Source: an uncultured Poribacteria bacterium (GTDB lineage: Bacteria; Poribacteria; WGA-4E; WGA-3G). From it: a stretch of DNA of 64,000 bases. Position 1 is the stretch's first letter; each line of letters opens with the position of its first letter. The position numbers were made by a program, and so were the translations under genes. The notes beneath the pieces were generated by a model. That model searched no databases. It worked only from the letters and a program-made list of their open reading frames with translations, and was not told the origin of the DNA. The stretch spans positions 5,248,001 through 5,312,000 of the forward strand of contig OX638351.1 of assembly GCA_951813565.1 (NCBI GenBank), in the 5' to 3' direction. Shown in pieces: positions 2,784 through 61,098 of the stretch.

Positions 2784-3348
2784 TAACGTGAGTTTGATAA
2801 TTAACTGGACAGGCAAAAATTGAACAGAGAACGGGCATATTTGCTGAAAAAATCGTTATTTTGGTGTTTTTAACCCCTAATACCACATTAACTTGATTCA
2901 TATTTATGGAGCAGTTAGGAAAACGTACCTTATGCATCAATTTAAGGATATACCCTCTTGTGGGAGTGAATCAACGCAGCATGCGCGTCCGGCATGCTGC
3001 CAAATCAACGCCAAATGCGCTTTTTGGCATTTGGCGGGTTTTCAACCCCGATTTTCTTCTGTAGGAGCGACCTCCCGGTCGCGAGCTGGAGCTCGCTCCT
3101 ACAGAATGTCCGAGGCGACAAGTCATGGCGAATACCACGCGTATTCGCCCAAGTGCGCTTGGCGTTGATTTGGCAATGAATTGCGCGACTACGCTTTTTT
3201 TCTTAAATTGACAGTTATGGTGCGGTTAGGAAACCGCACCTACCGTCCGGAAAATGCGATAAATCCCGTTAATTTGGTATAAATCCCCCTTATCAGAGGA
3301 CTTTAAGAGGAAATGTAGAAATCCTAACTATTTATCAAACTCACGTTA
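2784..3348. mobile_element. Nested MITE stack (at least 4 layers)
   Basis: Outer TIR TAACGTGAGTTTGATAA/TTATCAAACTCACGTTA; then TAATACCACATTAAC (2878)/GTTAATTTGGTATA (3281); then TCAATTTAAG (~2937)/CTTAAATTGACAGTTATG (~3218). Innermost are REP hairpins and AATCAACGC modules. Confidence 0.75.
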
Positions 3349-5820: not shown

Positions 5821-5960
5821 GTAATTTACTTGTAGATTTTTTGACATACTCCCCAAGCTAAAGCATGGGGATTCTTCTATCATCAGAGACAACCTGCCGA
5901 AGCGGGTATTACGTCTCCTCCTGAAAAGGTTGACGCCCCAACCTTATGAATGTTTATAGC
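5821..5960 (-). ncRNA. Predicted TnpB omegaRNA (reRNA) plus flanking guide; boundaries approximate
   Basis: Established position for TnpB elements (overlapping the tnpB 3' end and right-end hairpin). Predicted guide is the sequence after TCAA: AAAAUCUACAAGUAAA... Confidence 0.65.
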
Positions 5961-7230
5961 AGCGTTTATATCGCGGTCATGAGAGATTTTACAATTATGG
6001 CAATACCAATCGCGCAGATTCAAATCAAAGAACTTATGGATTTGTCCGCAGGAATGGCAAACTTTACTTGTGGGTGTCCATCTGTCAATCTGCTTGACAT
6101 GCTTGCATCGTTTTTGTGCTTGCCATTTGATTTTCAGCATGAAATCTGCAAAGGCGTAGTCAGAGACTTTTCGTCCCCAGAGTCGTTTCATGCCGTCAAG
6201 GTTCAAGTCTTCAAAGTAGCAGACATCAAACTTTCGGACAAGTTCAAGTGCGAGTTTCCAGTGATGGTCTTCACGTTGCCGATTGATTTTCCTGTGTACC
6301 CGTGCAAGGTCTTTCCTCGCACGCTCGCGATTGTTGCTGCCTTTTTGCTTCCGAGACAACGCACGGCTCGCACGTTTTATCAGTTTAGCAGCAGATTTAT
6401 AGCATTCAGGAGATTGATATTTCGTGCCATCGGAACAGGTGAGGAAGTGCTTGAGTCCAAAGTCAAACCCTGCTGTCCTACCAGTCTTAGGTGCAGGCTC
6501 AAGTCCCTCAGTGTCTGTTGTGATAGTGATATACCAATCCCCTACAAAGTCTTTCTTAACGGTAACTCGTTTGATGTTGCCTTCAATAGGTCGGCTATAC
6601 CAGAATCGGTACCAGCGTCTATTGATACGGATTTTCGCAACGGGGCAGCCATCTATTTTGTTTATAGTTTCTATCTTAACTTGGCTACCATCAAAAGTCA
6701 TAGATTTATATTTATACCGACTTCTAAATTTAGGCGGACGCTTGGCTCTACCTTCAAAGAAGTTTTGCCAACCTCTGTCAACACGTTGGATACATTCCTG
6801 CAAACACCAAGAATACGGAACAGTCCAGTGTTGATATTTAGCAAGTCGTTTCAGTTTCGTCAGATGTTTAATCATTCTGTAGCAGCTTGGACGCTTATAG
6901 TCTTCGCAATGTCCGTAGATGCGATAGTGACGCTGCCACAACGCAACAAAATGGTTGTGGACATGCGCAATGATACGCAGGTCTTTTTGCAGATGACGAT
7001 TGCGTTTATGTTTTTGTCCCTTGTATTTGTAGGTTCGCATTACATATCCTTCGCATTACAATACCACTTTCAAATGGTGCGGTGGCACTCTCAAGCGAGA
7101 GGTGAAATCCACCGCTGTAATACTGAAGATAGTATAACACAAACGCAAGGAAAAATCAACAAAAAAATGGAGACGTTAGCGGTGTCTACATCCCCGAGCT
7201 AAAGCAACGGGGTTTTGACACCGAAGATTG
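5841..7230 (-). mobile_element. IS200/IS605-family element with tnpB only (IS1341-like)
   Basis: Subterminal hairpins at both ends (CCCCAAGCTAAAGCATGGGG ~5851; CCCCGAGCTAAAGCAACGGGG ~7192). On the minus strand the right end finishes in TCAA and the left end starts CAATCTTCGG after TTAT. No tnpA. Confidence 0.85.
5883..7040 (-). CDS. tnpB: RNA-guided endonuclease TnpB
   Basis: MRTYKY N-terminus, RuvC-I GFDFGLK, RuvC-II FEDLNL, zinc finger CHSC/CHNC, RuvC-III HDRDINAAINI. Confidence 0.95.
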   Translation of the reverse strand: MRTYKYKGQKHKRNRHLQKDLRIIAHVHNHFVALWQRHYRIYGHCEDYKRPSCYRMIKHLTKLKRLAKYQHWTVPYSWCLQECIQRVDRGWQNFFEGRAKRPPKFRSRYKYKSMTFDGSQVKIETINKIDGCPVAKIRINRRWYRFWYSRPIEGNIKRVTVKKDFVGDWYITITTDTEGLEPAPKTGRTAGFDFGLKHFLTCSDGTKYQSPECYKSAAKLIKRASRALSRKQKGSNNRERARKDLARVHRKINRQREDHHWKLALELVRKFDVCYFEDLNLDGMKRLWGRKVSDYAFADFMLKIKWQAQKRCKHVKQIDRWTPTSKVCHSCGQIHKFFDLNLRDWYCHNCKISHDRDINAAINIHKVGASTFSGGDVIPASAGCL

Positions 7231-10342: not shown

Positions 10343-10468
10343 TGAAACCCGTAATTATTCTTATATGAATTTCAAACATAGCATGAATGTCCGAGGCGCA
10401 ATGAATTGCGCGACTACAAACGCTGCTAACCTCAAGAAAATGTCCAGGTATTTTTAGATTTTACTATA
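10338..10468. mobile_element. MITE, TATAGTGAAA...TTTTACTATA family
   Basis: TIRs with core GAGGCGCAATGAATTGCGCGACTAC. An inverted homolog is at ~56126-56270. The left end overlaps the GTPase TAG stop. Confidence 0.75.
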
Positions 10469-25088: not shown

Positions 25089-26028
25089 TAACGTGAGTTT
25101 GATAAATCCCGTAGGGAATCAACACCGAATGCGCCTATGGCATTCGGTGGGGTAGAACGGAAATGGACAATAAAAACAGACCGTAAAGAGAGGTTGTTGA
25201 CCCATTTGAGGACGATATTTCCGAAAAAATAAGTAAAATCCAACTCTTAGGACTGTCAAGACGGTTGAATTGTTGGGTTTCGCTTCGCTCTGCCCATAAA
25301 TCAACGCTATGAATGCCTTTATGGCATTCAGCGGGTGTCAATTTTAGGATATATCCTATTGTGGGAGCGAATCAACGCAGCATGCGAGTTTGGCATGCTG
25401 CCAAATCAACGCAGCATGCGAGTTTGGCATGCTGCCAAATCAACGCAGCATGCGAGTTTGGCATGCTGCCAAATCAACGCAGCATGCGAGTTTGGCATGC
25501 TGCCAAATCAACGCCAAATGCGCTTTTTGGCATTTGTCGGGTTTTCAACCCCGATATAACGGTTTGAGTCTCACAATATCGGGCTTAGAAAGCCCTCCCA
25601 CAAAAAAATCAGGCACTAAATTGACGCCTATGGGTTTCGCTTCGCTCTACCCAACGGACTATATTCAATTTAATTATCAAACTCACGTTACCCATAGGTG
25701 TCAATTTAAGACAACATCTATGTTTTTATGAACCTTTCTCAATACACATTATGATTGAGATTGTCCTACATTTAGCCCCAGCGGGGCGATATGTTTATAG
25801 CAACCGGTATTGACACTTCTTGAGCGCCGTAGGAGCGACATATAAGTTATATACATACCGCCTCTACGAGGCTCAAGAACCCAGCACAACGCCTTTTCTA
25901 TAAACATACCGCCTCTACGAGGCTATAACAAACGTTAAAAACGGATTCAATACCTTAAATTGACAGTTATGAGTTTCGCTTTGCTCTACCCTACATCTCT
26001 AGGCAATCTAATTATCAAACTCCCGTTA
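25089..26028. mobile_element. Composite nested MITE/REP cluster
   Basis: TAACGTGAGTTTGATAA / TTATCAAACTCACGTTA and (C)ATAGGTGTCAATTTAAG / CTTAAATTGACAGTTATG ends as at 2784-3348; 2+2 inverted REPs at ~25773-25925; several AATCAACGC modules. Confidence 0.7.
25370..25505 (+). repeat. 4 x 34-bp perfect tandem hairpin repeat
   Basis: AATCAACGCAGCATGCGAGTTTGGCATGCTGCCA starting at 25370, 25404, 25438 and 25472; a variant unit follows at 25506. Confidence 0.95.
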
Positions 26029-56002: not shown

Positions 56003-56296
56003 CAGCAACATTCAATTCTCCAATAATTTCTGCCTTCCATCCAAAGTTTCTTCTTGTAGGAGCGACCCGACAAATACCAAACGCTTATTTAGCGTTGATT
56101 CGGTGATCGCGACCGTCGCAAAATGTTATAGTTAAAATCAAAAATATATTTACATTTTCTGAAGGTTAGCGGTATTTGTAGTCGCGCAATTCATTGCGCC
56201 TCTTAAATTTATCGTGTGTTTGAAATCCACATAAGAATAAAACGTAAAAATAATTATGGGTTTTACTATAAGAAACTCGAAAACTGAATGGCTTGG
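56003..56296. mobile_element. MITE of the 8917 family with a nested TATAGT-family MITE (~56126-56270) and an AATCAACGC module (56069-56101)
   Basis: Colinear with 8917-9039 once the two inserts are removed. Confidence 0.75.
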
Positions 56297-58435: not shown

Positions 58436-58690
58436 TAATACCATTTCTATAAAATAACATACCTTTTAAGAAATAGCTGGTTCGTAGTCGCGCAATTTAT
58501 TGCCAAATCAACGCAGCATGCGCTTGTGGCATGCTGCGCCTCGGACATTCTAATTCGAAAGGGAAATTCATTTATAGAATTGGTATAATACCAAATTCAT
58601 TTGATTCATTGTCTTCACATACCGCTCCGCTGGAGCGGAAGACGGAAAAAGCACTAAAAAAACAAGAAGAATCACGTTAATTTGGTATTA
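58436..58690. mobile_element. Two adjacent MITEs with TACCA-type ends; the first carries a REP with a 34-bp insert (58504-58537)
   Basis: TACCATTTCTATAAA/TTTATAGAATTGGTA and TACCAAATT/AATTTGGTA ends; CCGCTCCGCTGGAGCGG hairpin in the second. Confidence 0.65.
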
Positions 58691-58998
58691 GACGCACTTG
58701 ATAACGGAAACTATGATGTCGTTTCTGGGTGGAAGTTCCCCCGTAAGGACCCATTCGAAAAGCGCGCTTTCTCTTTCATTTTCAACAGCGTTACCGCTTG
58801 GCTCACCGGTGTGAAACTCCATGACATGAATTGCGGGTTCAAGGTATATCGGGCTGAAGTCGCAAAAGAACTTCACCTCTACGGAGACCTGCATCGGTAT
58901 ATCCCTATATTGGCATACCAAATAGGCTACCGTGTTGGGGAGATCAAAGTGAAACATCATCCACGCCGTTTTGGTGTTTCTAAGTACGGATTGCATTT
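58690..58998 (+). pseudogene. Internal fragment of an ArnC/DPM1-like GT2 glycosyltransferase
   Basis: YDVVSGWK..RKDP, LHDMNCGFKVYR, LYGDLHRYIP, HHPRRFGVSKYG; both termini are missing and replaced by MITEs. Confidence 0.8.
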
Positions 58999-59111
58999 TA
59001 TAGTAAAATCCGAAAATACGTTCACATTTCAATAAACAACAATCCCTACACACTTGCGCTGGAGAGGTTTCCTAACCTTGCCAATGTCCAGGTAATTGTG
59101 GATTTTACTAT
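58999..59111. mobile_element. MITE, TATAGTAAAATCC family
   Basis: TIR TATAGTAAAATCC/GGATTTTACTATA. Confidence 0.75.
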
Positions 59112-59249
59112 AACACATACTCCCTTAAACTTTGCCATCAATGTAATGTGGCAGCCTCCTCTTATTCTTCGTTCATTCAAATATCACTTGCCTTCTAAAC
59201 GGATTCATCCTATACTCTTTTATATCTTCATTCATTAGGAGAATAATCT

Positions 59250-60432: not shown

Positions 60433-61098
60433 TTAATAGGTGTTGTCATCCCAAAAAACTTTGAAAGTACGGAGCAGTATCTTGAAATCGTTCCATAGGG
60501 ACAAATTCTCAATGTATTCCAAATCAACAGGAATTCCTTCACGGATTGACCCGCGTCGACATGGACTTAACTGCCAAAGTCCTGTCATTCCTGGACGCAC
60601 GAGATGGCGTTGATTTTCCCATTCCTCGTAATTTTCAGCAAGAAACGGCATTTCTGGTCGGGGACCGACAAGACTCATTTCACCTTTAATCACGTTAAAT
60701 AACTGGGGTAATTCATCTAAACTCGTTTTCCGAATCCATTTACCAACCGATGTAATACGAATATCTTCAGTTGAATCGGGCTTTTCTGAATAGGAGGGCG
60801 TATCAATATGAAGGCTTCTGAACTTGTGAATGACAAAGAGTTTATTATTTATACCGACCCGTTTATGTGAGAAAAAAATTGGTCCACGCGAGGTGAGTTT
60901 AATGAGTATTGCTATGACTATCATGAAAGGGGAAAAGAGTAGAATTAAGAAAAATGCCGCTACAAAATCAAGCAAATATTTTCCTCGCTTTGCGTAGAAG
61001 GAGGAAAGTCTTTTAACTGAAGTCTGTGCTGCTGTGTCGTTCATATATGCAAAGTCAGTTTTGGAAACGCAAAATTTTGTTGGCAAATGTGCCATCAT
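60433..61098 (-). CDS. Bacterial sugar transferase (initiating phosphoglycosyl transferase)
   Basis: KFRSL, RKTSLDELPQLFNVIKGEMSLVGPRPE, RPGMTGLWQ. Confidence 0.93.
   Translation of the reverse strand: MMAHLPTKFCVSKTDFAYMNDTAAQTSVKRLSSFYAKRGKYLLDFVAAFFLILLFSPFMIVIAILIKLTSRGPIFFSHKRVGINNKLFVIHKFRSLHIDTPSYSEKPDSTEDIRITSVGKWIRKTSLDELPQLFNVIKGEMSLVGPRPEMPFLAENYEEWENQRHLVRPGMTGLWQLSPCRRGSIREGIPVDLEYIENLSLWNDFKILLRTFKVFWDDNTY

Follow-up and report, generated by a model that had tools for sequence, protein, structure and literature searches.

A very small mobile repeat in a sponge-symbiont Poribacteria genome, and a candidate only for the enzyme that moves it

The window, a 64,000-nt stretch of DNA from an uncultured Poribacteria bacterium, belongs to a source genome (G000) that consists of one 5.43-Mb contig. 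At 58437-58588 of the window lies a MITE-like element with TA-rich ends and a GTAG REP inside, which has about ten related copies in the genome, both filled and empty. The REP in this element is interrupted by a 34-nt unit, with GTAGTCGCGCAATTTATTGC (58484-58503) on its left and GCCTC on its right, as an earlier sequence-only reading of this DNA had claimed. The uninterrupted REP copies which that reading placed at 10385-10417 and near 56180 were also confirmed, and all twelve of the roughly 12 unit copies it counted are present in the window (Table 1). It had described the 56-bp insert at the same REP bond as a different one; the position holds, on the reverse strand, and the insert is a CA-headed unit into which a second hairpin, lacking a head and followed by ATG, is nested. 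Thirty composites of this kind matched a single pattern. This head-less sister hairpin, an insert of 23-25 nt followed by ATG with a net gain of 24 nt, is likewise nested in a unit at G000:C1:697964. A thirteenth copy of AATCAACGC, at about 60607-60615 on the reverse strand, lies inside an ORF and lacks a hairpin.

Table 1. Units and host repeats within the 64,000-nt window
Feature	Position	Strand	Remarks
Two head-to-tail units (34 nt TG-headed, 35 nt CA-headed) in a GTGG-tagged repeat	2967..3035	+	units start at 2967 and 3001
56-nt composite at the same REP bond as the 58504 unit	3117..3172	-	one of about 26 related filled alleles
Empty host REP	10385..10417	-	
GG-headed unit, closing pairs AC..GT	25115..25148	+	
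TA-headed 36-nt unit, bulged stem, host CCCATA|GGTG	25297..25332	+	
Five-unit tandem array (CG-headed, then four CA-headed) in a GTGG-tagged repeat	25368..25538	+	units start at 25368, 25402, 25436, 25470 and 25504
Decayed CG-headed unit in a GTAGGAGCGA-type repeat	56069..56102	-	
Empty host REP	56178..56202	+	
152-bp MITE-like element with TIRs, holding REP and unit	58437..58588	.	arms 58438-58466 and 58558-58586
GTAG-tagged host REP, 3' stem arm split by the unit	58484..58551	+	311 genome matches: 180 empty, 88 filled
34-nt unit, CAAATCAAC head plus hairpin	58504..58537	+	inserted at TGC|GCC; fold; exact empty twin of host

The surroundings hold several other features. In a syntenic comparison, no host MITE was found at 6/6 loci near the neighbouring dehydrogenase gene. 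A segment at 58688-58993, part of a 121-aa ORF without a Pfam family, is 84-87% identical in otherwise distant members of the genus (G007, G022, G047 and G015), where the neighbouring core gene is only 72-74% identical; judging by these identities, the segment was probably transferred. It is followed at 58994-59113 by a repeat of roughly 116 bp whose ends form inverted arms and which is multi-copy in many genomes of the genus. The window also encodes the TnpB of an IS605-type element at 5883-7040 (-). Elsewhere in G000:C1, near 4877500 and 185500, we observed a 92-bp TIR element with a GTAG REP that is absent from the aligned G006 copies (L041, L042).

The unit follows the formula NN-AATCAAC-[G/A]...hairpin...C over a length of 33-36 nt. 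The foot of its hairpin is AAC[G/A], preceded by a constant AATC. The copy at 58504 is predicted to fold with its 9-nt head unpaired and a stem of 9 bp with a 7-nt loop (-10.5 kcal/mol, z -2.97, DNA fold). Approximately 600 simple units are spread over 347 intergenic regions of G000 and make up roughly 0.4% of its DNA. Counting both strands, AATCAACGC occurs 742 times against 110 expected from an order-4 Markov model, tied for fifth and sixth place among all 9-mers, whose median count is 34. A looser unit pattern gave 560 matches and its reversed control 0. The abundance of the unit is not due to chance. Searching the 64-kb window against Rfam produced 0 matches at gathering score.

The sequence-only reading had proposed that the stems change in compensating pairs and had allowed that such covariation might prove insignificant. 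Both a shuffle test and mutual information support the compensating changes. The alignment used comprised 71 units drawn from many genomes (the window copy and 70 of 80 listed loci), gathered with a pattern that already fixed 7/10 stem pairs. In it, 97.7% of 300 cells were paired, compared with 88.3% after shuffling; there were 33 double-sided changes, and 0/500 shuffles scored as high. When 96 distinct arm pairs were extracted by a pairing-free procedure, predicted stem pairs made up 5/10 of the top corrected mutual-information pairs, including the top two. The covariation is real, but it is carried by about four or five stem types and reflects few independent compensatory events.

Units are present in 37/37 genomes of the bacterium's own genus (g1) and in 53/57 of the sister genus (g9), reaching about 560 copies, while other genera and families have 0-2 matches each, nearly all of them chance-like. 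Abundant copies are limited to these two genera, which belong to one Poribacteria family. When all species genomes were scanned, 80 of at least 108 loci were listed, 78 of them titled Ca. Poribacteria and 2 ‘uncultured bacterium’. Viral contigs, searched with one unit variant, gave 0 matches. Counts include 351 in G017 (one contig), 506 in G049, 178 in G023 (one contig, 92% complete) and 78 in G001 (4 contigs, 97%); a narrow unit pattern misses the units of G001 and G016, which the looser pattern finds.

Aligning filled with empty sites, a check that the sequence-only reading had suggested, gave the junction rule C|G, where the bar marks the insertion point, and an exact empty twin: a 118-bp copy of the 152-bp host element near G000:C1:2824521 (-) that is otherwise identical. 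Counted without bias, 366/377 CA-headed units have a C before them, 356/377 end in C, and 363/377 have G or another head next to their end. Peeling 366 units from their hosts yielded 36 target clusters, with C at -2 in 1 and G at +2 in 28, in an analysis that had C|G imposed and in which some of the clusters are chimeras produced by peeling. Units target a C|G step, with D-C|G-G preferred, across many repeat families and some genes. What had been called ‘site-specific’ insertion is instead dinucleotide specificity across many repeat families. The absence of TIRs and the small junction ambiguity were correctly anticipated; the overlap at clean CA-headed events is only 1-3 nt, and there is therefore no target-site duplication (TSD). 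The hairpin-side end (hairpin-C|G) is nearly invariant. Each insertion creates a new C|G at the 3' end and in the loop of the unit, which accounts for head-to-tail arrays such as the one in the window and for nests; peeling needed nine rounds. Unique DNA offers 10,524 intergenic D-CGG sites and repeat DNA 5,469, and only 18/285 CA units are bordered on either side by low-copy DNA, mostly decayed repeats. This near-absence from unique intergenic DNA argues for a true preference for hairpin repeats, with host amplification inflating the contrast.

A second class of units, headed by TG, CG, GG, TA or GA (class II), combines the exact hairpin-C|G end with a loose head side. Several GTAG hosts read GT-GAATCAAC-hairpin-G-GG when filled and GTAGG when empty; the A of the GTAG tag is replaced in several hosts. 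For the AGGGAAC host, 44 empties carry GTA and the filled copies carry GTG in 10/10, a pattern repeated in G006, and insertion into GTGG variants is unlikely here, GTG being absent among the empty contexts listed. At the AGCGA host (268 GTA, 26 GTG), insertion into the GTG minority is a possible and simpler reading, and at GGCAC hosts a rare G variant accounts for the apparent base loss. Class II events occur at CC|TAC of the opposite strand with loss of the T, and they show GT/GG microhomology and the loss of 1-3 target bases.

The filled and empty pairs show that whole units insert between C and G without target duplication. The 88 filled REP bonds hold three unit types (44, 26 and 15 cases) plus 3 others, and at least 15 unrelated bonds are filled. 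The earlier statement that all copies lie inside other repeats is true within the window but not genome-wide, where two genes carry in-frame insertions. In a single-copy lipoate-ligase-like gene (L103:1529-2347, -; L106, L107), a 36-nt unit at GTC|GGA (G000:C1:4511630-4511665) adds 12 residues to the protein. It is filled in 3/14 orthologues and empty in 11/14, the 14 aligned having been chosen as the best from 37 full gene matches across 40 genomes, and two of the 11 empty orthologues have precisely the C|GG target. Three G000 copies of a DDE transposase gene (weak Pfam hit), which we take to be of the ISAs1 family, also carry a 36-nt unit, and the one G006 copy seen is empty.

Identical block copies are also common (3 of the 67-nt 58504 allele, 11 of the 56-nt allele and 14 of the 69-nt allele), and many copies, including the 58504 allele, have been multiplied as cargo inside host repeats. 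Such copies would be expected if the unit were not, or had never been, mobile alone and a few old events had been amplified within REPs and MITEs. One shared intergenic copy is decayed, which agrees with that account, and no strain polymorphism was seen in contigs from 4/9 listed runs over G000:C1:1439000-1458900 (about 8 unit loci), where long contigs end before the units; the only 34-base skip among them (X5, side 24) probably comes from a paralogous repeat. We regard amplification of a few old events as most improbable given the number of unrelated bonds filled, the insertions in a single-copy gene and in a transposase gene, and the different unit types at one bond. The unit itself is very probably mobile. 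Descent of all filled alleles from one ancestral variant, which the sequence-only reading had named as grounds for doubt, thus describes the many block-multiplied alleles but not the independent insertions. That reading's picture of a parasite of REPs and MITEs survives as a minimal, non-autonomous unit that has independently entered hairpin repeats many times; it is not confined to REPs. Comparison with relatives contributes few events: synteny with G006 gave one clean filled/empty pair from 780 kb, intergenic DNA being mostly unalignable at 82-87% identity, and 256 units of relatives gave 9 spanning alignments with 1 clean empty.

The lipoate-ligase insert bears on how units arrive. It is identical at 36/36 bases in G000, G006 and G052, while adjacent 50-nt windows are 74-88% identical. 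In the best tree the filled genes do not form one clade (3 changes; p-AU 0.054), monophyly being neither shown nor rejected, and this unit variant is single-copy in G000 and multi-copy in several relatives. Repeated hot-spot insertion, conversion or selection may explain this pattern. The identity of the insert across three species is one of the observations that would fit an origin through host machinery only, wherein replication stalled at hairpins is followed by template switching or by topoisomerase cut-and-join via microhomology, and gene conversion homogenises the products. Units are kept in all 40 genomes of the genus with or without Y1 or RT genes, the class II events use microhomology and lose target bases, and chimeric flanks exist together with perfect two-headed palindromes (head, hairpin, inverted head; e.g. 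G000:C1:1460149-1460187), which are likely products of template switching. We nevertheless consider host machinery alone unlikely. Clean gene insertions have only a single C in common with the unit and lack a host hairpin; the fixed length, fixed head and 97% C preference suit an enzyme; and host machinery is universal, yet abundant units are restricted to two genera.

We found no cognate enzyme among the candidates searched. G000 encodes ten Y1 genes, five IS605 tnpA and five others, some of them broken, along with 51 tnpB matches with several end families and two reverse transcriptase (RT) genes. Its intact RAYT genes lie at C1:242023-242496 and about 5070803-5071249, and a second-group Y1 gene at 3097995-3098471. 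The suggestion that the unit is the end of a known insertion sequence is rejected for the resident IS605/TnpB elements: the left ends of 5 tnpA and the right ends of 31/51 tnpB were read and are unrelated hairpins. Integron attC sites do not fit, since the junctions are not at AAC, and integron integrase had no match in 40 genomes (0/40, no positive control). Capture by Cas1, considered because the unit has spacer length, is rejected for lack of a target duplication, and four CRISPR arrays together contain just one AATCAAC[GA] motif. GIY-YIG nucleases gave three matches in frames of 265-627 aa, none among the 22 ORFs that have units on both sides.

A dedicated enzyme peculiar to this Poribacteria family and so far unrecognised, with a remote HUH fold or a new recombinase, would explain why the conserved unit outlasts every candidate tested. 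There was no match to IS110 (PF02371) in G000, with the control matched in 6/14, to relaxase PF03432 in five genomes (0/5) or to Y2 in five genomes (0/5, no positive control), and the integron integrase result above points the same way. Against such an enzyme, no ORF-bearing long version of the unit turned up among the orphan heads listed, of 128 found, and 0/22 doubly flanked ORFs resembles a nuclease by eye. We consider a dedicated enzyme rather unlikely.

Copying from an RNA intermediate by a reverse transcriptase has reportedly been proposed for the spread of cyanobacterial SDRs. One precise and one loose junction do recall target-primed copying, and two RT genes are available in G000. RVT_1, however, is unmatched in 4/5 relatives, including G017 and G049 with their 351 and 506 units, and gene orientation shows no clear sense bias (77 sense versus 104 antisense regions, p 0.053). 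RT copying is very unlikely. As to the RT genes themselves, the one at G000:C1:3990853-3996500 directly adjoins a CRISPR array of about 54 repeats, two further arrays lying at 1198127 and 2830673, and a stand-alone reverse transcriptase of 511 aa at L101:1750-3285 has motifs reminiscent of Abi/defence-type RTs.

The reading that we tentatively favour, at a little less than an even chance, is that a Y1/RAYT-type HUH enzyme, borrowed by the unit, moves it through single-strand cutting and joining. The link is circumstantial. The unit would be a non-autonomous micro-element that travels as single-stranded DNA. Taken over from the GTAG REP system, a RAYT-like HUH (Y1) tyrosine nuclease would bind the hairpin and cut and rejoin one strand at C|G, with the foot bases AACG reading C|G as GTAG reads C|T. 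The outcome may be a circle of 34 nt, or else the strand may be transferred directly. Insertion beside REP hairpins would occur because the enzyme is located there and single strands are exposed there; host repeats then multiply filled alleles blockwise. The active strand may run either tag-then-hairpin, as in a REP, or hairpin-then-9-nt tail, as in a rolling-circle element. Rolling-circle ends have a precise start and a loose stop, and the opposite strand of the unit would resemble them.

Published work on RAYTs offers some support for this model. According to the available part of PMC8266576, the third and fourth foot bases select the cut dinucleotide (GTAG C|T, GTGG C|C, GTAC G|T); by this guide rule, insofar as that part gives it, AACG would therefore read C|G. 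The available text of PMC3333891 reports cleavage at a distance from the bound REP and strains that have lost the RAYT yet keep REPs, and it models circle excision with integration near REPs. Distant cleavage and RAYT loss, as far as that text goes, would fit the targeting of the unit and its persistence in RAYT-less genomes. Two such genomes, G023 and G001, nevertheless count against the model: neither gave a PF01797 match or a significant match to RAYT proteins, and under the RAYT model the gene must have been lost there. G023, with 178 units, is also without a match for Y1, RT or relaxase.

The genomic data on RAYTs are mixed. The flanks of RAYT genes across the family carry GTAG REPs, and 79/101 family genomes match the L010 RAYT at E<=1e-8. 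Genus genomes with a strong RAYT hit have a median of 111.5 units and those without 54.5 (20 vs 20, p 0.003), with the E<1e-40 cut chosen after the hits were seen and kinship uncorrected; in 20 genomes of <=30 contigs the p value is 0.053. Two other Y1 groups show no correlation with unit count (p 0.38, 0.85). A RAYT could also raise unit counts merely through host REP amplification. Against the RAYT model there is no cognate REPtron: units, which the sequence-only reading had suggested looking for beside a RAYT, occur within 330 nt of 3/31 RAYT loci, below the background of 624/3,836 G000 ORFs (16%), and units lie near 1/12 second-group Y1 loci and 0/15 IS605 tnpA loci. The pairing of AACG with C|G is indistinguishable from plain stem extension, CA units with an A foot end in C in 11 cases and in T in 3, which does not follow the guide rule, and the 5' junction of the unit is C|C, not C|G. 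The strand distribution by replichore (256:216, on a weak skew) shows little bias, and neither a circle nor an excision was seen in the strain contigs examined.

In our literature searches, with subscription journals outside their coverage, we found no description of this unit family. The closest kinds are cyanobacterial SDRs and REP/RAYT systems, and the unit belongs to neither. In behaviour it resembles a cyanobacterial SDR and in appearance a tagged REP, while the defining features of REP/RAYT, PATE and MITE and the SDR size do not apply to it. SDR1-8 of Nostocaceae (Elhai et al. 2008) are reportedly 21-27 nt long, with nested self-insertion and compensatory hairpin changes. Compared by description only, the unit shares with them a very small size, a covarying hairpin, self-nesting, residence within other repeats and the lack of a known enzyme; it differs in its 33-36 nt, its phylum, its fixed 7-nt head and its C|G target. 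The available text of PMC5861425 places SDR5 inside HIP1 and describes SDRs as restricted to Nostocaceae.

The likeness to GTAG REPs lies in a short, covarying hairpin that is mostly intergenic and lacks a TSD. The tag of the unit, though, is not GT[AG]G or CGTC, its junction is C|G (CA-headed) where that of REPs is C|T, and it has no cognate RAYT locus and goes into REPs. In the parts available of the literature on REPs, REPINs, BIMEs and RAYTs (PMC8266576, PMC3333891, PMC6006769, PMC3733652, PMC3116915), doublets are the mobile unit; whereas the mobile form of a REPIN is an inverted doublet, our units are inserted singly and their arrays run head-to-tail. Like PATEs, the unit has no coding capacity, contains a hairpin, leaves no TSD and would be moved in trans. 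PATEs retain both ends of the parent IS, at least in the available text of bioRxiv 10.1101/2023.03.14.532601, while the unit has one hairpin, matches no resident IS605 end among those read, and has no 4-5-nt target motif, with a preference only for C at -1 and G at +1 and +2. Unlike a MITE, it is an asymmetric head plus hairpin without TIRs or target duplication; TIRs belong to its host at 58437-58588. Rickettsia palindromic elements, of about 105-146 bp and in frame within working genes in the available portions of PMC3733652 and PMC3184786, resemble it as palindromic repeats in frame in genes, but the unit has 36 nt and genes are a rare target.

The unit is real, a very small mobile repeat in a sponge-symbiont genome, with only a candidate for the enzyme that moves it. 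The spread of REP-sized repeats has long been an open question, since REP movement has seldom been observed with both the filled and the empty site known exactly. In the present family, hundreds of junctions are defined to the base, the target follows a two-base rule, and one in-frame insertion, compared across orthologues, adds 12 residues to an enzyme. If a RAYT cuts the unit, one hairpin with a swapped foot can redirect a HUH nuclease, which would bear on the origins of REPs and on tools for scarless insertion of short DNA; if RAYT is inactive on the unit, a different enzyme, as yet unknown, or a host pathway would be indicated. At its most ambitious, the model has a 34-nt single-hairpin parasite with a guide at its foot that reprogrammes a borrowed HUH nuclease, or an unknown enzyme of the family, for scarless insertion at C|G, while a second mode captures GTAG tags and the same hot spot is re-entered across species. 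We consider this full version doubtful. If it is true, the unit is a hyperparasite that exploits REP/RAYT systems and is close to the smallest size that mobile DNA can have, and its movement is a minimal DNA-guided insertion reaction.
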